From: a virus
Virus record (IMG/VR): IMGVR_UViG_3300045988_124082
DNA length: 64,000 nt
Strand: one strand, 5' to 3'
Made by a program: the position numbers and the translations under genes. Below are positions 24,054 to 62,289 of the stretch, in pieces (position 1 is the first letter of the stretch; the number at the start of each line of letters is the position of its first letter). The notes under the pieces were generated by a model, which was given only the letters and a program-made list of their open reading frames with translations, did no database searches and was not told where the DNA came from.

Positions 24054-24384
24054 CCTAACTGAGTTCGACTCCTCAAGGTTTCCCTATGAGTGCAGACTAT
24101 ATCTTCACCCTTAATAAAAGGGGCTTATTTTTTGGAACCACCAATCGCTTGTGGCCTACTTCCTTACGGAATAGTCGTTGGACTCCATCTTTCGATAAAA
24201 GCTGCTGATTATCCATTAAAAAAGAGCAGGGGATTTAACCTCGCTCTTATACAACCAATTTTTTCAGTTTTCACAACATTCACGCCTATACCATTGCAGG
24301 TATTACGTTGTAGTTTGGTAGTCTTTAGGACTTCCCAGCAATTAAATAAGTATTTTTTCATACAGCTTACACTATACGCAGACT
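24054..24384 (-). mobile_element. ORF-less group I intron in small-terminase-like gene
   Basis: P TTGCTGGGAAGTCC (rc 24328-24341), R TCCAACGACTAT (rc 24171-24182), S GAAGATATAGTCTGC (rc 24092-24106). These closely match the classical R (GUUCAACGACUAGA) and S (AAGAUAUAGUCC) boxes. The 5' boundary is good to about 20 nt. Confidence 0.65.
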
Positions 24385-25386
24385 AATAAGGTTAATCTGT
24401 TTATGACGAGCTTCTTCTGAAATCTCTGCAACCTGGCGCATTCCTTCACAAGTACCAATATCAAAGGTGTTAATTTCTGCCTCTCGGAACCCAATATCTC
24501 GTAAATGCTTTTCTTTCCCGGACAGAGTGAATGCACCTTTGGATTTATTATTGTTATTTGTGATAGAAATACCATTTTCTTTAGCTAATGAGTTAATATT
24601 ATTGACCAGTTTTGAAACTGTTTCAGATAAGTTTTTGACAACAGCATTGTTCTGTACAGCAGTTGTAACATCAATCGTGTACGCATCAATAGCTGCGTTA
24701 AGATTTGTGATCTGAGCTTGTGACTTAACAATTTGGATTGCAGCAATCATCTTCATTGCATCATTCTTAGTTTCTTCATCCAAAAAGTTAACAAGCTGAG
24801 AGTAGAGTAGAGGCATGTCTTTTTCACTTGGGTATTCATCAAATGGATCATACCCAATGATTTTAATGACATCCTTCCTATTTTGTTCATATGCTTCTTT
24901 AAGAGCTTCAGCATCGGTATAAATGGATTCTGTTTTCACCTTCGATACATGAGTCATATCTTTAAAAATATCACTATCACGCCAACGCTTACCATGATAC
25001 TGATTCAAACCAAGACTTGTTAGATAAACACCCCATATAGTTTTATTTTCTTTCTTTTTACCTCTTTCTGGAGGCTTGTTTGCACTGAATACAGCAGTTT
25101 CCCATAAATCTTCATAGAATGGCTTATCTAAATACTCTAAAGCATCTTGAACGCTTTCTCTTGTCTCTCCAAGAAATTCTCCAGCATCAGTTTTTCTACG
25201 AGCAACAGCAGTAGAACAATCTTTACAGATTCTTGTAATACCTGTTAAAACTCTAGGATCTGAACTACTATAGAATTTTGTCTTTGGAAGATCTTTGTTG
25301 CAAAAAGGACAGCGAAATGTTTCTTCTTTTTGCGCTTGTACCTTTTTAGCAGAGGATTGTGTACGGCGCATTGCAGTTTTCGCCAT
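24385..25386 (-). CDS. small-terminase-like packaging protein, 5' exon (zinc-ribbon N-terminus)
   Basis: ORF 24367..25386. CPFCNK..CKDC zinc ribbon. Located directly upstream of terL. Function is positional. Confidence 0.45.
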
Positions 25387-27015: not shown

Positions 27016-27025
27016 TTGGACATAG

Positions 27026-27098
<73 letters not shown>

Positions 27099-27282
27099 AC
27101 AAAAAGAGTACATTGTAACTACCAACAATGTACTCAAATTTAGAAAAGAGGTATAAATTATGATTCCTACAAGAAATCTTAATAGCTTTGTAAATCTTTC
27201 TGAGGTATGAAACAACAATAGAAAAGCGCAATAATCAAAACTTCACAAGAAAGGAGATAATATGATTCCTCAGAAAGATTAA

Positions 27283-27354
27283 CAGGGATAACTGGATTTG
27301 AACCAGTGAATACAGCAGTCAAAGTGCTGTGCCTTACCGCTTGGCGATATCCCT
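27283..27354 (-). tRNA. tRNA-Gln (anticodon TTG)
   Basis: AGGGATA acceptor, CAGCA-CTTTGAC-TGCTG anticodon arm, ACTGG-TTCAAAT-CCAGT T arm. Confidence 0.8.
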
Positions 27355-27967
27355 ATATGTATTTTAATTTTAAAGCAGGTCTTCACCTTACAGTCATTTG
27401 TGGAATAGTTTGTTCTGCAACATAGTAGATAAGTCTGAGCTTTGAGGAGCGACCTCTAACTTCTTACCTAAGTCTAAAAGACCAGTTCTATGACATGATC
27501 AATACATGCAATGTCAACCCGCCATTCAGAATTAAGTTTTATTGTTATATACTCTATTAGCATATATATTCATTTTGAATTTGAACTTACCCTTAACTGA
27601 CTTGAGCGACATACCAGCGACTTTTCTTATACACTGTCTTTTGAACAGCTTCACATCAAACTACATTATTTGGCTTTTCCACCTTTTACGTACCTGCCAG
27701 AGTACGCATTGAAGTGGATTATTCTCCACAGGAGCGTCTATTGTTGTAGCGAAAAGTTCTGTGCGTTAACCAGACCAAAATGCTGCACAATATCCATTTG
27801 CTTGAGAGTTTCTCTCTTGTCCATATCAGATCACTCCGACATAAAAAGAGACACAAAGAACGTATCCGTACAATGTATCTCTCCAATTCGACATATGTGC
27901 CTAGAATATTTCTCGGACTCATGGCATTGAGTTTTATAACCGAGTTGCTTATGTTTTAAAATACAAA

Positions 27968-28039
27968 CACCCTAAGCTGGATTTGAACCAGCACGAACGG
28001 TTTTGGAGACCGTCATTCTACCAACTAAATTATTAGGGC
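27968..28039 (-). tRNA. tRNA-Trp (anticodon CCA)
   Basis: GCCCTAA acceptor (G1-U72 wobble), ACGGT-CTCCAAA-ACCGT anticodon arm, GCTGG-TTCAAAT-CCAGC T arm. Confidence 0.75.
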
Positions 28040-28046
28040 GATATTA

Positions 28047-28120
28047 CTGACATGACAGGACTCGAACCTGCAACACCAACGTCCGTAGCGTTGTGCTCTG
28101 TCCAGTTGAGCTACATGTCA
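28047..28120 (-). tRNA. tRNA-Arg (anticodon ACG)
   Basis: TGACATG acceptor, GCTC/GAGC D stem, CAACG-CTACGGA-CGTTG anticodon arm, TTCGAGT T loop. Confidence 0.75.
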
Positions 28121-28163
28121 TTAAAATTCGACCTCAATCCACATAGGATTTTGAGGTACTTTC

Positions 28164-28249
28164 GTCCCTGTTGAGGGTATCGAACCCACTCGTGACCGAA
28201 GCCATCTGATTTACAGTCAGATCCGCCTCCTTAGCGGGATAAACAGGGA
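28164..28249 (-). tRNA. tRNA-Tyr (anticodon GTA), long variable arm
   Basis: TCTGA-CTGTAAA-TCAGA anticodon arm, GGCTTCGGTC variable arm, TTCGATA T loop. The D arm and T stem are slightly irregular. Confidence 0.6.
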
Positions 28250-28291
28250 TATAAGCCCGTGAGCTCGAAAGACATCACAGGACAACCTAAA

Positions 28292-28377
28292 CGCTGCGAC
28301 AAGGATTCGAACCTTGAGGTCACTAGGACACAATAGTTTTCAAGACTACGCCGTTATAACCATTTCGGTACCGCAGC
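28292..28377 (-). tRNA. tRNA-Ser (anticodon TGA), long variable arm
   Basis: GCTGCGG acceptor, GTAGT-CTTGAAA-ACTAT anticodon arm, CAAGG-TTCGAAT-CCTTG T arm. Confidence 0.75.
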
Positions 28378-28382
28378 AAAAG

Positions 28383-28474
28383 CGTACAGAGTGGGCTACG
28401 ACCCCACGTTACATGTATTCGCATGTAAACCCAATTAGCAGTCGGGCGCCTTAAACCAACTCAGCCATCTGTAC
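28383..28474 (-). tRNA. tRNA-Ser (anticodon GCT), long variable arm
   Basis: GTACAGA/TCTGTAC acceptor, CCCGA-CTGCTAA-TTGGG anticodon arm, 7-bp variable arm TTACATG..CATGTAA. The T loop GTCGTAG is atypical. Confidence 0.65.
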
Positions 28475-29664: not shown

Positions 29665-30519
29665 TTATTTTTTGTCAGAATTATAGTATTTGGTATATCT
29701 ATTTAACTGCATTTCATTCTTGCAAGAAGTACAATACTGTCTAAGCCGCCCTTTACGATGCTTTTTCTTTTTTGAGATGTCTCTAAAAGGTTCTCCACAA
29801 CAGGAGCATACAGAAATCTCAGGATATCCAATAAAGTGAAGATATCTGTTCCCAAGATTCTTGAAGTCTGTAATCTCAAGAGCAACATCTCCTGAATCGA
29901 CAAGAATATCTACAGAGAAGTTTAAGCTATTAACTTTCTTGCTCATTGTTATACAATCGCTTCTGAACAGCCTGCCGATTATTTGGCATCTACGTTCTCT
30001 TGTACCTACTGTATTACCCAATGAGAATAAATCTTTGTAGTCTGTATTCACCCAATTATTGTTTTGAGGATTCAGAGCATTATAATACTTGGCCAAGCAA
30101 AGAGCAGTGAAGAGAATCTTTTGATCTCTAAGATTCTCTAACCCATTTATGGTTTCCATTTCAGACTCATAGATCGGCAGTGAATCAATTTCCACGAGAG
30201 GATACTTTTTAGCTTTGTGAATGATCTCATCAATGCATGAATACCATTTAGCTTCTCTGTAGCTCTCACAGGACTCTTTTAAGAACTCATTGATAATTTT
30301 ATATACCTGTGCAGGTTCTAAGTCTTTCTCATGGATGTAATACTTTGCAAGCAGGGTAGCAGTATATGGTATACTGCCTTCCAGCTCTTTTGTTTCTAAA
30401 ATTTTTTCTACCAGTGTTTTTTCATTCAGTACGATATTAATAACAATCAGCCTCCTCAAACATAGATGATTCAATTTGTTTAATAGTTTCAATGACGAAA
30501 GAATCTCCGTCATATTCAA
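29665..30519 (-). CDS. hypothetical protein with C-terminal Cys4 zinc finger
   Basis: 284-aa ORF with CSCCGEPF..CTSCKNE. The start overlaps the upstream RNAP-like gene by about 80 nt, and there is no alternative in-frame start nearby. Confidence 0.5.
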   Translation of the reverse strand: MNMTEILSSLKLLNKLNHLCLRRLIVINIVLNEKTLVEKILETKELEGSIPYTATLLAKYYIHEKDLEPAQVYKIINEFLKESCESYREAKWYSCIDEIIHKAKKYPLVEIDSLPIYESEMETINGLENLRDQKILFTALCLAKYYNALNPQNNNWVNTDYKDLFSLGNTVGTRERRCQIIGRLFRSDCITMSKKVNSLNFSVDILVDSGDVALEITDFKNLGNRYLHFIGYPEISVCSCCGEPFRDISKKKKHRKGRLRQYCTSCKNEMQLNRYTKYYNSDKK

Positions 30520-33229
30520 AATCTCCTGATTCAGCTCTTACAGGATAAGAGATCTGGTGATAGTTTCTCTCTAAGAGTCTTTGGACAAGGATGTCTCCAA
30601 ACATGTCCCATACAAACTGCTTACTCTTGCCATTGGTATAGCAGAGGTCAAGAAGAATGTCACAAGCTTTCTCAGGATCAGGAACAGCAGTGGCAACAGC
30701 TTCTCTAAACAACATGACTCGGTTATTGATGATGTCTGTTACATTTAGTCCAAAGCCACTCCGGCCATTGATTAGAGCATTCAGGGTTTTCATTTTCTTT
30801 GAATATTCGCTGTATAACTTCTTAAGAGCATAATAATCATTCTTGTTGTACTCATGATCTCTTTTGAGAATGGAGTAATCAAAATCTGTTTGTGTATTCA
30901 ACTTTTTTAAGTAACCATCAAACTCGTCCTCAAACAGCTTACAGATTCGATTCATTACACAAGGCCCTGTACCTACAGGCAAAAACTTATAGTAGTGATC
31001 TAAGAATTCCGCTTCGTCCTCTGTGATAGGTTCTGTATCAGCTTTCTTGAGTAATTCATCAATTGTGCACCCAAACCAGATAATACATTTGTCATTTGAA
31101 GCTTTCACATAATTTGTATAATCCTTTCTCAGATGAGAGTAGATGTAGATCATGAAGTATGGCTTCTTGTCAGCTACGATTCTCTGATTAAATTTTTTTC
31201 GCTTACGATCCTTTGGTGAGTCTTCAGGATGGATGTTATTTTCCTTGCGATTGTACCAGTAAGATGGCATTGGTTTAGAAACTATCCCTTTAAGTTTATC
31301 AATCGAATTTTGTTGGTATAGCTGGCCACAAATGATTCTGTAATCTAGTTCTTTAAATTCATTGCTATCAGGTGAGTAATGAGATTGAACTTCGAACTGA
31401 GAGGTAATGATGTTAGTAGTAAACCCAATCTCATCTCCAAAAGCATCTTTGTAAGATTTTAACATGTCCTTTCTTTTTGGGATTATCTTATTAGCTTTAC
31501 GCTGTACACAAACAATGGCAGGCAGTGGACGGTTGTTCTCAACAAGGATTTTATTGCTAGTGGTGAAGAAAAGGTCGCCATCGTGATCGGCGCCATTCAA
31601 TGATTCACATGTATTATCCCAATTGTTGATCACACAAATGGATGGGAGATACTGGAACCAGTATGAAAGCTGCTCATTGTTCTTCACTTTAAGATTGACG
31701 ATATTGTAATGGCTTGTCATTGGAGCTCTGAAGCAAGCTACTTCATCAACCTGTCTATCGATCCAATGCTTGTGATACATTTCTCCTGCTTTAAGCAATC
31801 CTGTAACTTCAAGTCCAAACATGGATTGCATGAGAGCATATGGATCACCAGCAACGATTGAATAATTACCTTTCACTTTAATGCGTCCGATCTTAGCATC
31901 TTGGATTCGTTTCTTGATGAGAGAATGAATCTTAGATCGAATGAAAGGATCTTTGATCATCTCAGGTTCCGCTATGAGTGCCTGAATGTATGTAAAAGCA
32001 TCTGACTGTAAGATGTTCTTCTCAGTCATATTCTTACCTCGTAGGAAGAGCAGAGTCTTTCTGTAATCCATTCCAAGAATGTCTTTGATCTCTTTTATGG
32101 TTGGCTCACAAAGCTCTCTTATTTGGTCGTCTGTAAGATAATAGCTTTGTAAGAACTGATAGTTAAGATTCCTTTCAGTATCACATTCTTGTTCGGCTGT
32201 CTTGGCAAGAGCAAAGTGATAATCATACTTCTCAATGTTCTCTAAGTAGTCTTCCATAGACTCATATGCATCCCATAGCTTAAACATAGATGTTGTAAGT
32301 ATCACCTGAGCGTCTCTAACGTCCCTAGGATGGCCCCAAGCATCAATAATGGTATAAGTCTTAGCTACGTCCTCTGCAAAGGCTCTAAAGTCCATACAGT
32401 GAAGCATACCTTTACAGAATGGCCATCCTCTCATGTTGCCAGATGGAAGAGGAGTATCATAATCTCCATTCAGTTCACCGTTCCATTGTCTTGCAAGTTC
32501 TGGAAGAACTAATCCTTCTCCATCAGATCCGTTGTGTACAAACTCTTGATCATCAAGAAGAGTTACTTCTGGCTCATCTGAGTTTGTATCATCCACATAA
32601 AGAGCTTGTCCCTTAAAGATCGTCTCACAGTCTTGTACAACAATCACTCCTGATGGTGTAGTAACAACTGTAGAAGAAGAGCAGAAGAGTGCTTTGTACG
32701 CTCCGAGCTTGTTTGGTATGATCGGAACTTCTTTATTTCTTCCGGCATCTACTTTCTCACAGAGAGCATCGTATACATTGTCACTGACAAAGATCACGAC
32801 ACTATTCTTTAAACCTCCTGTGGTTCCTAAGAAGAGATTGTAGTGAAGATCGTTTACAATGAATCCATGCTTGCTGCAGTAGTCATAATCTTTCTTTGTG
32901 TCGAAGACCACTGTGAGGTAGTCTGTTTGGAATCGACATTTGTACAGATCATTGTAGAGTAGTGAGATAAGTTCTTTGCTTCCTCTGTTGGCTGAAAGCT
33001 CTTTGATCTTCTTTCGGATTCTTTTTGCTCTTATGTCTGAATCATAGTCATGGATCAATGAGTCAATTGTTCTTAATGCTTCAGAACTTGAAAGAGTAAT
33101 AATGTCGTCTCCATTCTCCCTCGCTTCATTGAGTGGTAGAGAAAGTTTCCACTTCGCCTTTCTTAATCGGCTGCTGTGTAGTTTGTAAATATATTTCTGA
33201 CTCGTTTTTTGCTTAGAAATAATGATCAC
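30437..33229 (-). CDS. single-subunit two-barrel RNA polymerase candidate (YonO / RdRP-like, DxDGD motif)
   Basis: 930 aa. NGADHDGDLFFTTSN matches the G(S/A)DxDGDx(Y/F) catalytic signature of YonO and QDE-1-type polymerases. No other polymerase motif was recognised by eye. Confidence 0.5.
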   Translation of the reverse strand: MIIISKQKTSQKYIYKLHSSRLRKAKWKLSLPLNEARENGDDIITLSSSEALRTIDSLIHDYDSDIRAKRIRKKIKELSANRGSKELISLLYNDLYKCRFQTDYLTVVFDTKKDYDYCSKHGFIVNDLHYNLFLGTTGGLKNSVVIFVSDNVYDALCEKVDAGRNKEVPIIPNKLGAYKALFCSSSTVVTTPSGVIVVQDCETIFKGQALYVDDTNSDEPEVTLLDDQEFVHNGSDGEGLVLPELARQWNGELNGDYDTPLPSGNMRGWPFCKGMLHCMDFRAFAEDVAKTYTIIDAWGHPRDVRDAQVILTTSMFKLWDAYESMEDYLENIEKYDYHFALAKTAEQECDTERNLNYQFLQSYYLTDDQIRELCEPTIKEIKDILGMDYRKTLLFLRGKNMTEKNILQSDAFTYIQALIAEPEMIKDPFIRSKIHSLIKKRIQDAKIGRIKVKGNYSIVAGDPYALMQSMFGLEVTGLLKAGEMYHKHWIDRQVDEVACFRAPMTSHYNIVNLKVKNNEQLSYWFQYLPSICVINNWDNTCESLNGADHDGDLFFTTSNKILVENNRPLPAIVCVQRKANKIIPKRKDMLKSYKDAFGDEIGFTTNIITSQFEVQSHYSPDSNEFKELDYRIICGQLYQQNSIDKLKGIVSKPMPSYWYNRKENNIHPEDSPKDRKRKKFNQRIVADKKPYFMIYIYSHLRKDYTNYVKASNDKCIIWFGCTIDELLKKADTEPITEDEAEFLDHYYKFLPVGTGPCVMNRICKLFEDEFDGYLKKLNTQTDFDYSILKRDHEYNKNDYYALKKLYSEYSKKMKTLNALINGRSGFGLNVTDIINNRVMLFREAVATAVPDPEKACDILLDLCYTNGKSKQFVWDMFGDILVQRLLERNYHQISYPVRAESGDFEYDGDSFVIETIKQIESSMFEEADCY

Positions 33230-35282: not shown

Positions 35283-35759
35283 TGGAGAAACGTCTGGCTG
35301 AACTTGTGGTATAGAATTACCAGCTATACAAATATCAGCAAAACTGCGATTTAAAAATAGTTTTAAGTAGCCCCATAAACACTTGTAAAAGTCCGTAAAT
35401 AACTATTTACTTGCGTTTTTGATCAGAAATAGATAGTCAAAAAAGCACGTATTTATGCGGGTTTGAGACCGTTTGAAAAGATTTTTAAAAATAATTTTTT
35501 TAGGGTATTGCAATATTTTCGTGGGCGTGGTCTTATACAGTTGTTCAAACGAACAGGGAACTTGATAAAGCAACAACCGGCAAGGGTTGTAAAACGTGCT
35601 TGCCAATGATTCAACATAAAAAGGGGGTAGCCCTACCCCTGTATAAAAATCGGGCGTGTACCTTGATAATTTCATAGCCTAAGGACTCTCGTTTTTCGGG
35701 AAGTCCGTTACTGTTCGACAAGTCTCCGAACAGGTTCAAAAAATCAGTTTCTTTGGAAA

Positions 35760-36390
35760 CTGAACGACAGGCTAAAACTCTGCCCTGTTACTCATTCGTG
35801 ACAGGCAGACAAGTAAACCTTTGACTTATTGCCTGTACCCAACGTCACACGAACGTGGTACAGGATTTATAAGAAGTCGTTGCAAGTCCAAAGAAGTGTA
35901 GCAGATTTTTTGAATCGGTTCGCAAAAATACAGGTAGTGACAGCCTGTAGACAAACTACCGAACGGTTGAAAGGTTTCCTAAGCGATATATTTTATATTG
36001 CTTAGTATAGTCGATATGACAGGGTGTCAAACATTGACGGTTGACCCGAAACACGTCCATATACTATAAGTCCCTGTGGGGGTGGGGTCCTGTCTTTCAA
36101 GTGTTTGAAAAGCGTTGTTGTTGACACTATAACAGAGTACCGCCCACGGTAGAAAGTTCTAACAGGCACGACAACGGCTCTCATTCGAGCTGGGTATATT
36201 GTGCATTGAATACTACTACTTATCTAGTTCAACGGTAGGAGACTAGACTCTGTGAAATAATAGGCTATGACAGGTGCAACCCCTGTATAGTATCGAGTGA
36301 GTGCATGAACACTTGCGAGCGGTCAAAAGTCCCTTTAGGGATAATATTAGAACTCTGTGAGTTCATTAGAATACATCTAACAGGTGTGGT
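35760..36390. repeat. cluster of at least six hairpins closed by ACAGG/CCTGT
   Basis: ACAGG 35767 / CCTGT 35784; ACAGGCA 35801 / TGCCTGT 35830; CCTGTACC 35832 / GGTACAGG 35867; 35930/35944; ACAGGG 36019 / CCCTGT 36072; 36270/36282. Loop lengths differ. Confidence 0.6.
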
Positions 36391-36467: not shown

Positions 36468-37445
36468 ATGAGTAGAAAATCAACAAAAACAACAACAGTA
36501 GCAAACATTACACTACCAGTCCGTAAAATGGACTTCACAGAAGCAACTAAAGAATTCCGTACTCTTTGTCGCAATTTCTATACAGATTTTGAGAAAGTCG
36601 CAGAGAACAGGGAAGCTCTACGAGCAGAGAAAACAGAGTGTGAAGAACACTTTGACACTCGAGTAAACAATGCTTTTGACGTATCCGAACCTGTGGATAC
36701 AGACAAAGAATTACCAACGGAGTATGCAGACCTTAGGAATATTCTAGAAAAATATTCCGTAATACAGGCTACAGGTCTGCTTTCTAAGGAAGATAATGAC
36801 TATCTTTCTGCACTTTGCGATAAGTGGAAAAAAGCTGACGCAAAGATTAGAAACTTAAAAAATCCAGTGCCTGAGAAGTCTCTAGTTGTAGATGCAATCT
36901 ATGACCTATACAAGGGATGCTCTACAGATATGAGTGAAAACCGTGACGGCTACGCTCGTAAAGTCAAGGGGTTCTTTGAATCTAAAGGCATGACACTAAC
37001 TTCTTATGGTTGGGATGTGTTCAATGCTTCCATTGGGTTCAATGTGAATAATGACAAAAACTTCTTAGAGACAGGTAAGTTCTTCAACCCTATTAAAAAG
37101 AGCAAGTTTGTAGAAAGATTCTATATGTTCTTCTGTGAGGGGTTTGTAAGTGCAGATTGCTTCCCTAAGACTAAGAAAGCACGTCATGTAGATGCAGAAG
37201 AACAGGCACCAGTGGCACCTCAGAAAGTTGAAACACCTGAGGAAGTACATGAAAAGTGTGCAGACGCTCGTGCTGAAATCTCAGCTCAGAAACTGGGTAC
37301 AACTGAGTCCAAACCAATGGACAAAATGACAGTGGCAGAGTTACGTACTTTCATTAAGAAACATGATACAACTGCCAAAGTATCTAAGTTGAAAAAAGCT
37401 GACTTAGTAGCTATGGCTACAAAGTTCACAAATGTAGCAGCTTAA
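36468..37445 (+). CDS. hypothetical protein with C-terminal HeH/SAP (Rho-N-like) motif
   Basis: 325 aa. C-terminal MTVAELRTFIKKHDTTAKVSKLKKADLVAMA. First gene of the plus-strand arm. Confidence 0.5.
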   Translation: MSRKSTKTTTVANITLPVRKMDFTEATKEFRTLCRNFYTDFEKVAENREALRAEKTECEEHFDTRVNNAFDVSEPVDTDKELPTEYADLRNILEKYSVIQATGLLSKEDNDYLSALCDKWKKADAKIRNLKNPVPEKSLVVDAIYDLYKGCSTDMSENRDGYARKVKGFFESKGMTLTSYGWDVFNASIGFNVNNDKNFLETGKFFNPIKKSKFVERFYMFFCEGFVSADCFPKTKKARHVDAEEQAPVAPQKVETPEEVHEKCADARAEISAQKLGTTESKPMDKMTVAELRTFIKKHDTTAKVSKLKKADLVAMATKFTNVAA

Positions 37446-37484
37446 TCTTACACAAATAAATACCCATAGTGGGTATTTGTATAA

Positions 37485-37555
37485 GCCTGAGTGGGTACTC
37501 ACTTCCAACACCTCCAGAGTGAGTACGTCACAGGGTTCAACTCCCTGTACAGGCT
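37485..37555 (+). ncRNA. tRNA-like three-arm element (acceptor, canonical T arm, one 8-bp arm; no D arm)
   Basis: GCCTGAG/TACAGGC acceptor (one mismatch), CAGGG-TTCAACT-CCCTG T arm with a canonical T loop, GTACTCAC..GTGAGTAC stem with a 16-nt loop. Not a standard cloverleaf. Confidence 0.3.
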
Positions 37556-46355: not shown

Positions 46356-46946
46356 ATGTTTAAAGTTGGAGATAGTATTAAGATAACAAAAACAAAGATG
46401 GTTAATGATGGAATATTGGTAATAAATGATCGTTATATTCGGTTATGGTCTGTTTATGGAAAAGTAAAAAATCAACAGGAAGACGAAAAAGGTACTAAAA
46501 GCTTTATTGTAACTTTTGATAGTTGGAAAGAATTATTGGATAATGGGGATGGGGTATATAAAGAAGCGACAAATGAATGTGGATTAAATATAGTTATGTC
46601 AGAGAAAGGTGAAATATTTGATTCGGATGGAAAAGTTGTTGTTTGGTGTGAAAAACACTTACCATGGAAAGAGATAGAGGAAGGGGAAACCTATAAAATA
46701 AAACCAAATTCACGCTTATGTAAAGAAGTATTAGAATGGGTTGAATATAAATCAAAAGCTGAATTAAAAATAGACCCGAATGAACTGACTGCTATGGTTA
46801 AACACACAAATATTGCCCAGGGGCTTCTCTTAGCAGTTGTTGTTCCTCTTGTCAATGGTAAGAGAGTTACTGAACGTGGTTGGGAATTGTTTGAAAACAA
46901 TTATTCAGATCAACTTAACATAGATGACAGCATTGAAGAGTTATAA
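46356..46946 (+). CDS. hypothetical protein with family-A-like N-terminus, untagged
   Basis: MFKVGDSIKITK.., 196 aa, ends ..DDSIEEL. Confidence 0.5.
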   Translation: MFKVGDSIKITKTKMVNDGILVINDRYIRLWSVYGKVKNQQEDEKGTKSFIVTFDSWKELLDNGDGVYKEATNECGLNIVMSEKGEIFDSDGKVVVWCEKHLPWKEIEEGETYKIKPNSRLCKEVLEWVEYKSKAELKIDPNELTAMVKHTNIAQGLLLAVVVPLVNGKRVTERGWELFENNYSDQLNIDDSIEEL

Positions 46947-46958
46947 ATGATTTTTATT

Positions 46959-46986
46959 AAAAGCACAGGTTTTACTTGTGCTTTTT
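46959..46986 (+). terminator. rho-independent terminator
   Basis: AAAAGCACAggttttactTGTGCTTTTT. Confidence 0.65.
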
Positions 46987-47147
46987 ACATTGTATAGGAT
47001 GACCAAACATTGGTTGTCTTATAGAGTGTAAAAGCTCTAAATTACATATCTAAAATACATAACACTGCAAATTAATGGCTAGGGCAGGATCGTGTGTAAG
47101 AGATACATAGCTACAATAATATTTTATAAAAGAAAAGGAGAAACAAA

Positions 47148-54638: not shown

Positions 54639-55940
54639 GTGAATGGAATCAATAAAAGGAAATTAGAACTGTTTATGGATGATCAGCTATGGAGACAAAA
54701 TATTACACATCAGCAAAGCAAAGGTGTACATAGAGATGTATTAAGAATTGTGTGTGATCCAGAATACAAAGCACGGCTTTTAGGAATGATCTGGGATGGT
54801 AATTACAAAATTGCACCTCCGTATGTAGTAGAAATTCCTAAAGACAATGGAAAAGTAAGAGAAGTGTATGTTAATCAGCCAATTGACAGATTTGTTATGA
54901 CACAAATCAATTATGTTTATATGCAATTATATGGTCATATGATTCATCCAAGATGTGTGTCTTATCAGAAAGGAATTGGAGTTAAAAATATCGTAGATGA
55001 TATTTGTATGGAGCTTAAGAAACATCAAGGAGCTGTCGGGTATAAGGTAGACATTAGTAAGTATTTTGACAGTGTAAGCCGTGAGGTCCTTAATGAAATG
55101 ATTGATAAAATTGATACAGGAAGTCCTATTGATCAGATCGTAAGAGATTATTATATGGATGATTGTATCATTGATCAGAAAGGAAATGTTATTGAGAAAT
55201 ACAAAAGTATGACTCAGGGTTGTGCAGTGTCTACATTCTTTGCCAATTGTGTTTTAAAAGATGTTGATGAAGAGTTAAGCAAGATGGATATTATTTATTA
55301 CAGATATTCAGATGATATCTTGATGGTTGGTAAGGATGCAGATAAGGCTTTGAAGATGTTGGGAGAAATGTTAGAAACGAAAGGACTTACATTAAATCCT
55401 AAAAAGGTAGAAACAGTCAGTACAGATCAATGGTTTACATTCTTAGGAGTGCGAATTAATGGACAGAAAAGAAGTTTTTCTGAGAAGAGCTTAAAGGAAT
55501 TTCAGAAACATATTAGAGAATATGTAAATAAGAAAGCAGGAATTGGTAGCGTAAAAGTTGCAATCAGACAAATTAATAAATATCTGTATTTGAATTTCTT
55601 AAGGAATCCTAATGAGTTTGGTTGGGCTGAGTATTTCTTTAGTATTGTGAATGTCGAAGATGATATTAAGACATTAGATATGTGGATTAAAGATACACTC
55701 AGAGGTTTGTATACTGGTAAGAGAGGAAAAGAACAGATAGGTGGACTAGGTGTAAATAAAGTAACTAATGAATGTGGAGTATTAAGAGGGAAGGGCAACA
55801 AAGTAAGTTCAAATTTACGTAAAACAAGAAGTGATAAAGACATTTTAGAAGAAGCAGGATATATCAGTATGAATGAAATGTATCATCAGTTTAGATATAG
55901 CAAAGAATTGTACAGGGCTTCATTGACGGCTTTATCTTAA
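54639..55940 (+). CDS. reverse transcriptase (stand-alone, no endonuclease or maturase domain recognised)
   Basis: RT motifs in order: IPKDNGKVREV, YKVDISKYFDSV, QGCAVSTFFANCVL, YYRYSDDILMVG (YxDD), LTLNPKKVE, FTFLGVRI. GTG start behind GGGGGTG. Confidence 0.85.
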   Translation: MNGINKRKLELFMDDQLWRQNITHQQSKGVHRDVLRIVCDPEYKARLLGMIWDGNYKIAPPYVVEIPKDNGKVREVYVNQPIDRFVMTQINYVYMQLYGHMIHPRCVSYQKGIGVKNIVDDICMELKKHQGAVGYKVDISKYFDSVSREVLNEMIDKIDTGSPIDQIVRDYYMDDCIIDQKGNVIEKYKSMTQGCAVSTFFANCVLKDVDEELSKMDIIYYRYSDDILMVGKDADKALKMLGEMLETKGLTLNPKKVETVSTDQWFTFLGVRINGQKRSFSEKSLKEFQKHIREYVNKKAGIGSVKVAIRQINKYLYLNFLRNPNEFGWAEYFFSIVNVEDDIKTLDMWIKDTLRGLYTGKRGKEQIGGLGVNKVTNECGVLRGKGNKVSSNLRKTRSDKDILEEAGYISMNEMYHQFRYSKELYRASLTALS

Positions 55941-56459
55941 GTGTAACCTAACACGAGGTACTTATGTGAAATGTTATAAGTCAAATCAGATCCCTAGGAT
56001 ACACGGGTGATTCCATGCATGGTTGATAACCAGCATTCCATCAACCCGTTCCTCCCTGGATCTTATCATCATAAAGGAAATTTAGAAACGTGTTATTAAC
56101 ATGAACATAAGAAAGTTACTATGGACGTTGTATGTGAGACAATGGAATTACATATAAGGCGCGTTGAAGCTGCAGGATGACTGGCAATACATTGACCAAG
56201 TCATCCCTGCAGCTCAACCGCTTTATAATCATAAAAGAATAAAGGAACATAGCATGATTGTGAGCATACAAACAAGCTAACATGGGCTAAACATACGAGA
56301 CGTTGAATCATACATAATAAGGGCACAGCTGCCTTATGCAGCGGGAAATTAGTCTCCTCGACAATAATTTCACCGCTGCCACAGGCGTGCGTGCCCTTAT
56401 TAATCATAAACCAATAGAGAAAACATGTCGCCAATGTAGAGTATGTAGAAAGGAAAATC
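55941..56459 (+). ncRNA. hairpin array 1: three long variable hairpins, each followed by conserved ATCATAAA
   Basis: Hairpins at 55988-56063, 56153-56227 and 56317-56400 (75-84 nt, imperfect, unrelated sequences). ATCATAAA at 56068, 56228 and 56403. RNA status and strand are inferred, not shown. Confidence 0.45.
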
Positions 56460-56996
56460 ATGAAAAGTTTATTTAAAGTATTGTATGAGCTGTCACAAGG
56501 AAACACCTTAATGATTAATAGTTGCATGTCTTTTAGAATGACAACTGATCTATACAAAAGACAAGTGAGATTTAAGAAGTATAAGGTTGTTGATCAAGGA
56601 AGCGTAGTAAGTGATGTGACATTGTGTAGTGGAGAGGTTATTGAGTATGATGACTTAATAAAGGAAGGAGATTTAGATTTTATATTACCAATTGAATTAA
56701 ACGAAAAAGAAAATCCATATGAGGTTATTGAATACCTGTATGGATTATTTTATTGTTCAGTTCCTGATAGATCTGCTGTTCAAAAGAAACAGAATTTTAT
56801 AGCAAAAGGATTAAATGATTTTGGGGCAAATGATTTTACAGGAATGAGAAGAAGTGAAATTCAGCCATTGTTAGAACTCTATGTGTTACTCGCTGGAATG
56901 AAAGGATGGATCACTTGGAAAGATGATAAGTTGTTCTTTTGGAAAGGTGAGCATAAGAGTTTGTATATATATAGAAAATGGATTTTAGGTTATTAG
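56460..56996 (+). CDS. hypothetical protein
   Basis: 178-aa ORF with RBS AGAAAGGAAAA. No motif recognised. Confidence 0.55.
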   Translation: MKSLFKVLYELSQGNTLMINSCMSFRMTTDLYKRQVRFKKYKVVDQGSVVSDVTLCSGEVIEYDDLIKEGDLDFILPIELNEKENPYEVIEYLYGLFYCSVPDRSAVQKKQNFIAKGLNDFGANDFTGMRRSEIQPLLELYVLLAGMKGWITWKDDKLFFWKGEHKSLYIYRKWILGY

Positions 56997-57013
56997 GAAA
57001 GGAAGAACGTAAA

Positions 57014-57775
57014 ATGAATGTAGAAAAGAGTTTGGAAAAAGCAGGAGTAGACACAAAGAAATATCCTTCATTAGCTATGCAGAATATTTTAGGATATCAA
57101 GGGAAAGCGTTTGCAGAAAATTCATACCTGTATAGAAAGATCATGGGAGATGGGCATGTGTTTAATCCTTATATACACAGAAGATGGCTTCCATATCAGT
57201 TTATGAATGCTGTCCATTGGACAAGACAGTATTATGCAGAGACTATTGGTTATGTAAAGATGCTTGAAAAAGAATTGATGCGTGGCAATAATGTAGATAA
57301 TTGGAAATATATGTACGATAAATTTGGAAAAGAGCTTAATGCTTTATATACACTCTCAAAAAGAGATAAAAAAGCGTATAAAGAAAGATGGGCTGCTTTT
57401 GGAAGATTAGAAATTTTGAAATATTTCTCTCAAGGGTTTGATTGTGTAGGGATAAATCAAAATACATTTTTGGAAATGAAAAATTTATTAGCGGATGAAA
57501 GATTTGAAGCTGAACGATATTGGCGATATCCTAATTGTTTATTGTATAAACGGCCACAATTTAGAAAAGATTTGGTAACAACAACTTTCCATTCAGGAAT
57601 TTATTTTACATTAAAACATATTATGATGTTTGATTATGAAAAATTACATATGTCTTCATCCCAAAAAGAAAGCCTAAAACGGATTAGAGAAGATTTAATT
57701 AACGGAGATTTCAATTATGAGCAGGCTTTTACAATTATTGAAGATTACGTAGCAAGATATTACAATCCAAGATAG
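57014..57775 (+). CDS. hypothetical protein
   Basis: Start moved to MNVEKSLEK behind AGGAAAGGAAG. 253 aa, Trp/Tyr-rich. Confidence 0.55.
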   Translation: MNVEKSLEKAGVDTKKYPSLAMQNILGYQGKAFAENSYLYRKIMGDGHVFNPYIHRRWLPYQFMNAVHWTRQYYAETIGYVKMLEKELMRGNNVDNWKYMYDKFGKELNALYTLSKRDKKAYKERWAAFGRLEILKYFSQGFDCVGINQNTFLEMKNLLADERFEAERYWRYPNCLLYKRPQFRKDLVTTTFHSGIYFTLKHIMMFDYEKLHMSSSQKESLKRIREDLINGDFNYEQAFTIIEDYVARYYNPR

Positions 57776-57788
57776 AGAGGGGAATTAT

Positions 57789-58286
57789 ATGCCAGAAGAA
57801 GTAAAAGAATTAACTATTAAAGAAGCAGATGAGTTTATTAAAAAGAAAGTAATCGGAGTTCTCATAAAAGCAGATGTAACAATCATAGTAAATGAATTAG
57901 AAGCTATTTATGGAGATTCGTTAGCAAATGGAACGGTTGGAGATTCGTTTTATATTTATAACTGTCCAGAAAATTATGATGAATCAGATTATGAAGAGCT
58001 TGAGTATATTGATTATGATGATATGTATGAAGATGATATTCGTGAAGAGAGAGCTGAAGCAGGAGATTTTAATCTTAAAGTATATAAGTGGTTCATTGTT
58101 GATCCAAGATTTACAGAATTATTAAAAGATTTGGGCGAGATAGTTGCTCCAGATATTAACCTTTGGGGATGTTGTGAAGACATTGAAGACGCAAGCGAAG
58201 CAACTGTAATTGAAGAATTTTTTGAAAGAATGCAGATTCTGTATGGACAAAAGAATGCAATTATTACAGAAAAGCTGAGTGCTTAA
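57789..58286 (+). CDS. highly acidic protein (DNA-mimic / anti-restriction candidate)
   Basis: 165 aa with ..NYDESDYEELEYIDYDDMYEDDIREERAEAGDF.. Composition only. Confidence 0.35.
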   Translation: MPEEVKELTIKEADEFIKKKVIGVLIKADVTIIVNELEAIYGDSLANGTVGDSFYIYNCPENYDESDYEELEYIDYDDMYEDDIREERAEAGDFNLKVYKWFIVDPRFTELLKDLGEIVAPDINLWGCCEDIEDASEATVIEEFFERMQILYGQKNAIITEKLSA

Positions 58287-58742
58287 ACCAACAAAAGGGA
58301 GATGTACCCTTTGTAGAAATACTTATCATAAACCATCGAAGAAGGAGGATCTTCAGAACCCTCCGCATTGATTACGTTAAACATCACTTCGTAATGATTT
58401 AACAGCATCAACTGCGAGAGGAGTTCATGAAGATCCTCCTTCTTGAATCATAAATACATAGAGGAATACATCAAAGATAAGTTGTTCTACATTTTTTGCA
58501 AGAGATATACTTGCTGATTTAATGAATTGTGTTTGAATCACTCACATAATCGGGAGAAAGGAGGCATAATCTCATCTCCTCCACTGGCAAGCCAGGGAGG
58601 ACTTGATGAGATTACATTCCGCTGCGGCGTCATTGTGCCTCCATTCTCCTGATCATGTTTGATCATAAACCAATAGAGAAATATATCACCTCACAATGAG
58701 TTAAATCTGTAACTATTAATTTACATAGAAAAGGAGAAACAG
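58287..58742 (+). ncRNA. hairpin array 2: one short and two very long hairpins, each followed within ~12 nt by ATCATAAA
   Basis: Hairpins at 58294-58312, 58336-58446 (111 nt) and 58549-58653 (105 nt). ATCATAAA at 58325, 58447 and 58662. The last motif, GATCATAAACCAATAGAGAAA, nearly repeats 56402-56422. Confidence 0.45.
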
Positions 58743-59312
58743 ATGAAAGCGATTTTTAAAGGAGAAAAAGTTGTAAGAACTAAATTAACATTAGACACTG
58801 GACTTGAAAGACTGGAAGGATCGGATGTTAGCTATTTTGTGAGACGACCTAAGCTGACACATGAAGTAAGTGAAGAAAAGGGTGGAATCATTTTAGAAAA
58901 GGATCTTTCTTTTAATAAAATCTTACTCTTAAAAGATGCTAATGAAGTGACAGTTGATGAATTTACATTTGTATTATCAGGCATTATTGATTACAACTTA
59001 GATGAAGAATGTGTAGTTTTTTACACAGACGCTTGTTGTTCAATTGAAGATACAGATGGGCAGAACAAAATCGAAGCCTATCATAAACTTTTGGATGCAT
59101 ATGAAAAGCAGGTAGGAACGAAAGAAAGTCAAGAGGAAGAATGCGATTGTGCTTACTGTAATGGAGATTACGTTTGTGCTTTTTGTAGAGATGATGATGA
59201 ATCAGAATTAGATGATGAAGAGGACATCGGAAAGAAAGCAATGGATAATCTAGAAGATCTAAATAAAATTCTTGCAGAGTTCTTCGGGGATATTCCGGGA
59301 TTCAAGTGTTAG
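58743..59312 (+). CDS. hypothetical protein with Cys cluster and acidic tail
   Basis: 189 aa with CDCAYCNGDYVCAFCRDDDESELDDEED. Confidence 0.5.
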   Translation: MKAIFKGEKVVRTKLTLDTGLERLEGSDVSYFVRRPKLTHEVSEEKGGIILEKDLSFNKILLLKDANEVTVDEFTFVLSGIIDYNLDEECVVFYTDACCSIEDTDGQNKIEAYHKLLDAYEKQVGTKESQEEECDCAYCNGDYVCAFCRDDDESELDDEEDIGKKAMDNLEDLNKILAEFFGDIPGFKC

Positions 59313-59397: not shown

Positions 59398-60192
59398 ATG
59401 GCAACAGAGTTTGACAAACGAATGAAAGCTTATGAATGTGTCTCAAGACAGTACTTAACAAGAAGAGTACCAGTTGCAATTAGGGTAGATGGAAAGGCAT
59501 TTCATACATTCACTAGAGGGTTTCAGAAACCATTTGATGAAGTGCTTAGCAACACAATGCAAGCCACAATGATGAAAATGTGTAGACAGATTCAGGGTTG
59601 TGTGTTTGCTTACACACAGAGTGATGAAATTACATTTATTCTTATCGATTATCAGAAGCTAAATTCTGATGGCTGGTTTAACTACCGTACTGATAAGATG
59701 TGTAGCATTGCAGCGAGTATGGCTACTATGGAGTTCAATAAGGCTTTTAGTGCTTTTGTTTATGGATTTAAGGTAAACAAGGGAGAAGACATATCAAGCG
59801 AAGATATGGAAGTGCTTAAGGCCTATGAGAAATCTAAGGAACGTGGAGCTATGTTTGATGCTAGAGCGTTCTCAATTCCAAAAGAAGAAGTCACAAACTT
59901 AATCTATTGGAGACAACAGGATGCTATGAGAAATGCAGTTCAGATGGTTGGACAAGCATTTTATTCTCACAAAGAACTTCAGGGTGTTAATTGTGAAATG
60001 CTTAAAGAAATGTTACTGGCTGATAAGGGAATTGAATGGGATAAGATTCCTGTGAAATACCAGAGAGGCAGTTGTTGTGTCAAGGTTGATGGTGAATGGA
60101 CTATTGACAATAACATTTCTATCTTCAGAGGTAGTGACAGAGAGCAAATTGATAAGCTTGTGTTTGTTGAGAGTGAAGAGGATCAGGAGTGA
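59398..60192 (+). CDS. Thg1-like protein (tRNA-His guanylyltransferase family, 3'-5' nucleotidyl polymerase)
   Basis: N-terminal VPVAIRVDGKAFHTFTRGFQKPFDEVLSNTM..CVFAYTQSDEITFIL matches the Thg1 family core (R.DG+.F..FT..F.KP.D...YxQSDEIS). Confidence 0.75.
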   Translation: MATEFDKRMKAYECVSRQYLTRRVPVAIRVDGKAFHTFTRGFQKPFDEVLSNTMQATMMKMCRQIQGCVFAYTQSDEITFILIDYQKLNSDGWFNYRTDKMCSIAASMATMEFNKAFSAFVYGFKVNKGEDISSEDMEVLKAYEKSKERGAMFDARAFSIPKEEVTNLIYWRQQDAMRNAVQMVGQAFYSHKELQGVNCEMLKEMLLADKGIEWDKIPVKYQRGSCCVKVDGEWTIDNNISIFRGSDREQIDKLVFVESEEDQE

Positions 60193-62139: not shown

Positions 62140-62289
62140 GGGGACATAGCTTAATAGGTAAAGCAAAACTACATTCTTCCATAAAGAACTTAAAACTAAA
62201 ATTTTCATATTAAATATAAACATTTTGTACCTCCCTATTGTAATAAAATAACACTTATATTTATGTGGGTTCGAATCCCACTGTCCCCA
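62140..62289 (+). ncRNA. interrupted tRNA-like gene (canonical acceptor, D and T arms; about 75-nt AT-rich insert in place of the anticodon region)
   Basis: GGGGACA..TGTCCCC-A acceptor, GCTT-AATAGGTA-AAGC D arm, GTGGG-TTCGAAT-CCCAC T arm. The only anticodon-like hairpin is TTCT-TCCATAA-AGAA (CAT, with C33) at 62174-62188. Confidence 0.4.

Follow-up and report, generated by a model that had tools for sequence, protein, structure and literature searches.

The stretch studied here, positions 58,287-58,742, is the spacer between two plus-strand genes on a viral DNA of 64,000 nt (IMG/VR record IMGVR_UViG_3300045988_124082), which was analysed over its whole length and is called the window below. 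The spacer lies downstream of a reverse transcriptase (RT) gene and of a block of three further genes, and the genes of this region are:

54639-55940, plus strand: UG27-class reverse transcriptase, 433 aa (Pfam RVT_1, 5.6e-21; PADLOC RT_UG27, 1.3e-164)
56460-56996, plus strand: accessory gene g346 (RTas346, cluster 346), 178 aa (PADLOC RTas346, 6.3e-14)
56978-57775, plus strand: accessory gene g337 (RTas337, cluster 337), 265 aa (PADLOC RTas337, 2.4e-10)
57789-58286, plus strand: third gene, g3, 165 aa, without a family match, found only in relatives whose RT is at least 63% identical
58743-59312, plus strand: next gene, g4, 189 aa, without a family match, differing between clades

The RT matches the RT_UG27 profile of PADLOC over its full length (residues 5-431 against positions 2-419 of 420), and both the Y-S-D-D catalytic motif and a C-terminal G407-Y408 pair are invariant in 28 aligned UG27 RT homologues. 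A C-terminal Tyr or Ser serves as the primer of DNA synthesis in DRT9 and DRT10; by analogy, the invariant Y408 in the C-terminal extension is a candidate priming residue. g346 adjoins the RT in 73 of the 86 sequences searched, and the gene order RT, g346, g337 recurs in relatives. An AF2 model of g337 was all-helical (pLDDT 76) and had no match among PDB folds at E<0.001 (Foldseek), nor did the g337 sequence have a PDB relative; the structure model of g346 was unusable (pLDDT 40). The three-gene block is made up of the UG27 accessory genes RTas346 and RTas337 and the lineage-specific g3, and the order of the UG27 system is RT (54639-55940), array 1, RTas346, RTas337, g3 and array 2, the arrays being the two spacers described below; g4 is probably outside the system. 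The sequence-only reading had left the RT unrecognised and had looked to the product of 30437-33229 as a phage polymerase. This 930-aa product has no Pfam match, resembles only PHROGs of unknown function and has no PDB relative, and the relevant polymerase is the reverse transcriptase at 54639-55940.

Array 2, the spacer 58287-58742, consists of one mini-hairpin and two long, very stable hairpins, and its fold reaches -162 kcal/mol (z = -10.6 against dinucleotide shuffles). All three hairpins had been seen in the sequence-only reading; motif-anchored folding moved the borders of the long ones by a few nucleotides, from 58336-58446 and 58549-58653 to 58339-58444 and 58544-58658. The octamer ATCATAAA was found again by sequence scan at the three positions given for it, 58325, 58447 and 58662, all on the plus strand. 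The long hairpins end 2 and 3 nt 5' of ATCATAAA, and each is followed by this octamer and then by a conserved single-stranded tail. The copy at 58325 calls for a correction of the earlier description, as it differs in kind from the two tails: it lies 12 nt past the mini-hairpin and immediately before the first long one, it is not matched by the tail HMM described below, and its position reads ATCATCAA in 7 of 10 close relatives. Array 2 and array 1 (55941-56459, between the RT and g346) contain the following elements:

55946-55959, plus strand: leader mini-hairpin of array 1 (ACCT-aacacg-AGGT), just 3' of the RT stop codon, then a degenerate tail-like stretch
55988-56095, plus strand: unit 1a, with hairpin 55988-56063 and a weaker tail from ATCATAAA at 56068, under the threshold of the tail HMM
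56153-56262, plus strand: unit 1b, with hairpin 56153-56227 and tail 56228-56262
56315-56442, plus strand: unit 1c, with hairpin 56315-56402 and tail 56403-56442
58294-58312, plus strand: leader mini-hairpin of array 2, directly 3' of the g3 stop codon, with a GAGATGTA-like loop
58325-58338, plus strand: ATCATAAACCATCG, the 5' flank of unit 2a, in place of the AATCA-like 5' box; the octamer in it is not conserved
58339-58481, plus strand: unit 2a, with hairpin 58339-58444 (106 nt) and tail 58447-58481 (ATCATAAATACATAGAGGAATACATC...)
58533-58700, plus strand: unit 2b, with 5' box TTGAATCA at 58533-58540, hairpin 58544-58658 (115 nt) and tail 58662-58700 (ATCATAAACCAATAGAGAAATATATCACC...TGAGT)

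The mini-hairpin that opens each array right after the RT or g3 stop codon resembles a leader unit; its position and loop are kept in relatives (L080, L082 and L084), and a degenerate tail-like stretch lies 3' of it.

Array 1 also folds far better than shuffled sequence (z = -7.7), and array 2 is made of the same unit: tail-HMM matches with abutting hairpins occur in both, and the two have in common an exact 20-mer, ATCATAAACCAATAGAGAAA (0.02 expected by chance). The 23-mer 58661-58683, noted earlier as an almost exact repeat of 56402-56424, is indeed identical to it at 20 of 23 positions. Within IMG/VR the 20-mer is confined to the 10 contigs of this phage lineage, with two copies ~2.26 kb apart in each fetched stretch that covers both sites. 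From the last tail to the next start codon we measured 57 nt in array 1 (56403 to 56460) and 81 nt in array 2 (58662 to 58743), close to the 60-80 nt estimated before. Over the whole 64-kb window ATCATAAA occurs 12 times against 8.0 expected, and the octamer alone is thus not enriched; six of the 12 copies, all on the plus strand, fall inside two spacers (55941-56459 and 58287-58742) that account for 1.5% of the window. The signal therefore lies in clustering and context. The tail HMM matched the window at just four places (56226, 56401, 58446 and 58660), all in the two spacers, and the motif is accordingly not a common feature of AT-rich intergenic DNA, which the sequence-only reading had named as an outcome that would refute it.

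We compared these units across 85 UG27 loci drawn from IMG/VR and other assemblies, with RT identities from 99% down to 36%. In every clade inspected, the spacer downstream of the RT carries an array of long hairpins, and directly after each comes the clade's own version of one common tail. The parts of a unit are in order a short 5' box, a hairpin, a gap of 0-8 nt (measured on 61 units from 13 loci) and a single-stranded conserved tail. The 5' box is AATCA-like in this phage and TTCAAT or TTTAAT elsewhere; the hairpins measure 45-149 nt and are built almost entirely of Watson-Crick pairs; the tail spans about 30-40 nt. Alignment of 61 non-redundant tails gave the consensus TTCATCGTAAACCAATAAAGAAATGTGCCAGAAATATTGAGT, with a box A of the form AT[C/A]nT[A/G]AA (ATCATAAA in this phage; ATCGTAAA, ATCTAAA or ATATGAAA elsewhere), a box B of the form nTAnAG followed by AAAT (ATAGAG, TATAG or TAAAG, then AAAT) a GYRCC-like block and, in many cases, TGAGTA. 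No conserved secondary structure was found inside the tail, including no conserved 3' stem. The tail is conserved across loci that differ widely in GC content and gene content. The hairpin sequences are unrelated among homologues at 84%, 69% and 63% RT identity, and the hairpin always abuts the tail. Units number from 1 to about 10 per site: the first site has three in this lineage, two in each of L080 and L082, a single one in L084 and as many as 9-10 in L015 and L019.

Searched on both strands of about 1.2 Mb (the 85 loci), the tail HMM gave 253 matches, every one of them on the RT strand, and a strong hairpin lies immediately 5' of 232 of these. To score the second site, we asked for a tail match with an abutting hairpin no more than 600 nt after g337 or g3. 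Such a unit was present in at least 34 of 45 distinct loci, compared with 2 of 135 control regions taken from stretches upstream of the RT; manual inspection adds L054 and L072. The second site occurs in the close lineage and in L080, L082, L084, L014, L015, L020, L021, L022, L023, L028 and others, reaching relatives of about 37% RT identity; it was not found in L011, L012, L013, L016 and L019. The two arrays had been taken to bracket 56460-58286, and they do so with the same unit on both sides, also in distant relatives, where units again flank the accessory genes. The other refuting outcome named beforehand, relatives having the three genes with unrelated spacers and no flanking arrays, was thus not seen either. 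Four loci show a permuted order, g346, g337, unit, RT, units; no unit lies 5' of g346 there, and units stand 3' of each coding block, an arrangement that speaks for units as 3' elements of the transcripts from the RT and accessory genes and against promoters of g346. An extra unit precedes a Band-7 gene in L084.

The hairpins of array 2 were also compared among 8 distinct close relatives, in which 99.9% of cells in the long hairpins are paired. Seven pairs changed on both sides, a number reached by none of 500 shuffles, and controls in which the partner was slid gave 0-1. Hairpin sequence turns over completely and pairing is retained through compensatory changes. Altogether, these results show that the units are specific to UG27, locked to the strand of the RT gene, selected for pairing, variable in number and placed at two conserved sites.

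The two strands of the hairpins are not equivalent. For 50 of the 61 units the minus-sense copy, the reverse complement, comes out more stable than the sense hairpin (sign test, 5e-7); the G-U count is 80 against 42 in about 2000 pairs. With DNA parameters the unit hairpins fold strongly as well, on both strands. The bias would fit a need for the minus-sense copy (cDNA) to fold, and is not predicted by a purely sense-RNA function; it could also stem from antisense RNA or from mutation bias. The stems of the 61 unit hairpins are also rich in purine tracts, with GGAGG/CCTCC in 26 of 61, and the palindrome GATC occurs in 23 of 61 (about 9 expected). Read as a Shine-Dalgarno/anti-Shine-Dalgarno and GATC signal, this proved not to be specific, as other purine-tract and palindromic words are similarly enriched.

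UG27 is a Class 2 UG/Abi RT group (Mestre et al. 2022, NAR, PMC9226505). The same paper counts it, along with clusters 346 and 337, in 1447 dereplicated gut-phage genomes, and describes a putative ncRNA with "three long stem-loops" from the spacer that separates the RT and cluster 346. As far as the available text of that paper goes, its system and ours agree in the RT family, both accessory families, the three stem-loops of the RT-346 spacer and a phage context with tRNAs and no defence-island context, and its ncRNA is our array 1. The 2022 analysis, within the same available text, deals with the RT-cluster 346 spacer only, whereas array 2 is a second site after the accessory genes; this second site, the unit anatomy (5' box, hairpin and tail) and the minus-sense folding bias do not appear in that text. 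A bioRxiv preprint of September 2026 (10.64898/2026.09.22.753630) is represented here by its indexed terms, among them UG27 (74 times), "UG27 ncRNA" (11), "ncRNA array" (10) and "cDNA product" (12). To judge by search ranking, the preprint apparently lacks "second array", "two arrays", "msDNA" and "anti-defense", and of "template region", "ssDNA", "tandem repeat" and "stem-loop" it has no more than a single one. The arrays are not a new kind of element, and belong to a system that was described in 2022 and apparently revisited in 2026. What may be new, on a comparison with the 2026 preprint by terms only, is the conserved presence of a unit behind the accessory genes, in three quarters of loci or more, together with the defined unit anatomy with its consensus tail and the minus-sense folding bias of the hairpins.

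The closest characterised systems are the Class 2 UG defence RTs. The RT is matched by the PADLOC models for UG26, UG17 and Drt9 (1e-52 to 1e-28) and by the DRT9 structure 9ioa (4.5e-21), and the cis-encoded structured ncRNAs of DRT2, DRT3, DRT9 and DRT10 (UG17) also have a single-stranded segment abutting a stem-loop. Each of those RTs, however, has a single ncRNA, as a rule upstream, with A-B-A' microhomology in the template and a role in bacterial defence; UG27 has arrays of 1 to about 10 units, both downstream of the RT and behind the accessory genes, is carried by phages, lacks a clear A-B-A' signal and has no recognisable SLATT or nitrilase effector. Retron msr-msd elements are similar in combining an RT with a long non-coding hairpin whose sequence is free and whose pairing is kept, and which folds both as DNA and as RNA, but the UG27 elements lie downstream of the RT, not upstream, with many units per locus, and neither a1/a2 inverted repeats nor a conserved priming G were noticed in them. 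The resemblance to CRISPR is one of organisation only, a short conserved element alternating with variable segments in varying copy number; here the variable segments are self-complementary hairpins for which the rest of the window has no match, the conserved part is single-stranded and there are no cas genes.

Several known element types were tried and set aside. A retron assignment failed on the score with the St85 model (71.6 bits, the cut-off being 235), on the position of the elements downstream of the RT and on the lack of an Rfam retron match. For a group II intron, TIGR04416 scored 124 bits against a cut-off of 300 and no intron RNA matched even at E<=5. A diversity-generating retroelement would carry a template/variable repeat pair of about 100 bp, and direct repeats in 55900-58800 reach no more than 28 nt. 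No Rfam family matched at gathering thresholds, with only far-sub-threshold miRNA-like hairpin matches at E<=5. As guides or antisense sequences directed at the rest of the window, the hairpins gave only chance-level matches (<=13 nt).

We consider it likely that array 2 is a second set of ncRNA modules of the phage UG27 RT system, with a putative RT-bound role. The modules would be transcribed together with the operon and bound by the RT, the base of the hairpin serving as an anchor or template boundary for the enzyme and the tail as a recognition segment, a template segment for cDNA synthesis, or both. These RT-binding and template roles are proposed because the Class 2 UG RTs DRT2, DRT3, DRT9 and DRT10 work in this way; in such enzymes stem-loops, held by the RT at the base, border a short single-stranded template (bioRxiv 10.64898/2026.06.29.735271). 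The hairpin itself may also be copied, into a minus-sense DNA able to fold, a suggestion made in view of the more stable fold of the reverse complement. The fit to the Class 2 rule is imperfect in two respects. A-B-A' microhomology in the tail was not robust (of 16 tests, one gave a marginal A-A' word recurrence, 13 observed versus 6.6 expected, and the other tests showed none), and sequence conservation in UG27 lies in the tail, not in the stem-loop.

A related possibility, to which we give a small but real chance, is that the units are cis-acting 3' initiation sites for the RT, at which synthesis would start in the tail and copy the hairpin into minus-sense DNA. On this view each coding block, the RT gene as well as the accessory genes, ends in at least one unit, and the upstream mRNA would perhaps be copied too. 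If this were the case, the Watson-Crick stems and the minus-strand folding would reflect selection on a hairpin-shaped single-stranded DNA product, and the phage would make a retron-like set of msDNAs, possibly decoys against host nucleases or defence sensors.

Three rival explanations were weighed. In the first, which takes up the sequence-only reading, the units would punctuate expression of the operon: as promoters, terminators or elements for processing and stabilising RNA, they would determine where the transcripts of the following genes begin and how abundant they are. Hairpins with long double-stranded stems are classic targets of RNase III, as in the early mRNAs of T7 and SP82; the last tail of each array stands 57 and 81 nt before the next start codon, and a stem with a T-run comes after the unit 2a tail, at about 58457-58497. 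Against this, the long hairpins lack a U-tract, and a terminator scan found two sites in 6.5 kb, neither at a long hairpin; T-runs of at least 6 follow just 7 of 61 units, and sigma-70-like sites show no enrichment (27 against 29.3 expected). The units also occur only beside UG27 RTs and are absent from the other spacers of the 64-kb window, the permuted loci have no unit before g346 and place the units after coding blocks, and the tail is conserved despite the very different base composition of the loci. Intrinsic termination in particular was rejected, no long hairpin being called as a terminator and a conserved A-rich tail standing in place of the U-tract, and terminators between units were inconsistent in either orientation. 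The T7-like promoter reading of the 23-mer was likewise dropped, for want of an evident RNA polymerase and because the motif goes with the RT. We thus regard punctuation as unlikely, and the earlier idea of promoter modules as weakened by the permuted loci and by tail conservation across differing GC and gene content.

Slightly more doubtful, in our view, is that each unit is an antisense gene, in which the reverse complement of the tail would act as a host-type promoter directed into the hairpin and the functional RNA would be minus-sense. Four of the five tails in the window, read as reverse complement, do fit a sigma-70 promoter (GTGATA, TTGATG, GCGACA or ATAACA, then 16-17 nt and TATGAT), the reverse complement of box B is TATAAT in the L014, L020 and L036 clades, and the greater stability of the minus-sense hairpin in 50 of 61 units points the same way. 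The promoter-like register, however, varies by clade, falling on box A in one and on box B in another; a -10 box is easily mimicked by AT-rich motifs, the minus strand has no terminator after the hairpin, and the RT and all neighbouring genes are on the plus strand. Least probable of all, and very improbable in itself, is that the arrays form the borders of a mobile or recombining cassette carrying the three genes, as attC-like or IS200-like hairpin sites. Units in the same orientation do flank the accessory block, and the permuted loci, with accessory genes upstream of the RT, still have the 3' unit. Nevertheless, the cargo is always the same accessory genes and always beside the RT, the module contains no integrase, recombinase or Y1 transposase, the hairpin sequences differ between the borders and between relatives, unlike recombinase sites, and the number of units varies from 1 to about 10. 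The mobile cassette suggested by the sequence-only reading is therefore not borne out, as the block has no integrase or recombinase beside it and is a constant, RT-linked cargo; its co-regulated cassette survives loosely, in that the RT, the arrays and the accessory genes are one known system, and not otherwise.

The wider window is phage-like, with a ROOL RNA, seven or eight tRNA genes, a group I intron and a Thg1-like gene. The ROOL RNA (27357-27968, minus strand) is full-length at 305 bits and lies within a cluster of seven tRNA genes (27025-28474, minus strand: Thr, Gln, Trp, Arg, Tyr, Ser and Ser). The group I intron (24072-24404, minus strand) scored 62.5 bits against a gathering score of 50, and is on the late-gene strand, overlapping ORFs there. 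A tRNA model match of 150 nt at 62140-62289 on the plus strand, with a 93-nt insert against 15 model positions in the anticodon arm and not called by ARAGORN, may be a tRNA gene with an intron. A Thg1-like tRNA-His guanylyltransferase (59398-60192, plus strand) is encoded two genes past the RT module, and this gene, with relatives in Fusobacterium and Bacillus phages, was the only part of the region with a DNA-level homologue in INPHARED. In relatives, genes for an ArdA anti-restriction protein and a Y1 (IS200-like) transposase are found a few kb downstream of the RT module (L082 13954-14484; the end of the L080 locus). Other very stable local structures in the window (-41 to -55 kcal/mol) are at 35748-35896, 35960-36107, 37387-37542 and 46937-47038, two of the four in the divergent intergenic region between both gene blocks. 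The last of these is followed by ATCTAAA, and a sixth unit was considered there, at 46937-47055; for want of tail-HMM support it was rejected as a UG27 unit.

Among the large groups of UG/Abi RTs, UG27 is the one that is carried mainly by phages, not by their hosts. Recognition of the hairpin-plus-tail modules as discrete, countable units sharpens the boundaries of this system; it also supplies a consensus tail for annotating units and a concrete, testable idea of the point at which the RT would engage its RNA. Finally, the difference in folding between the two hairpin strands is a cheap computational clue as to whether the hairpins are copied into DNA.
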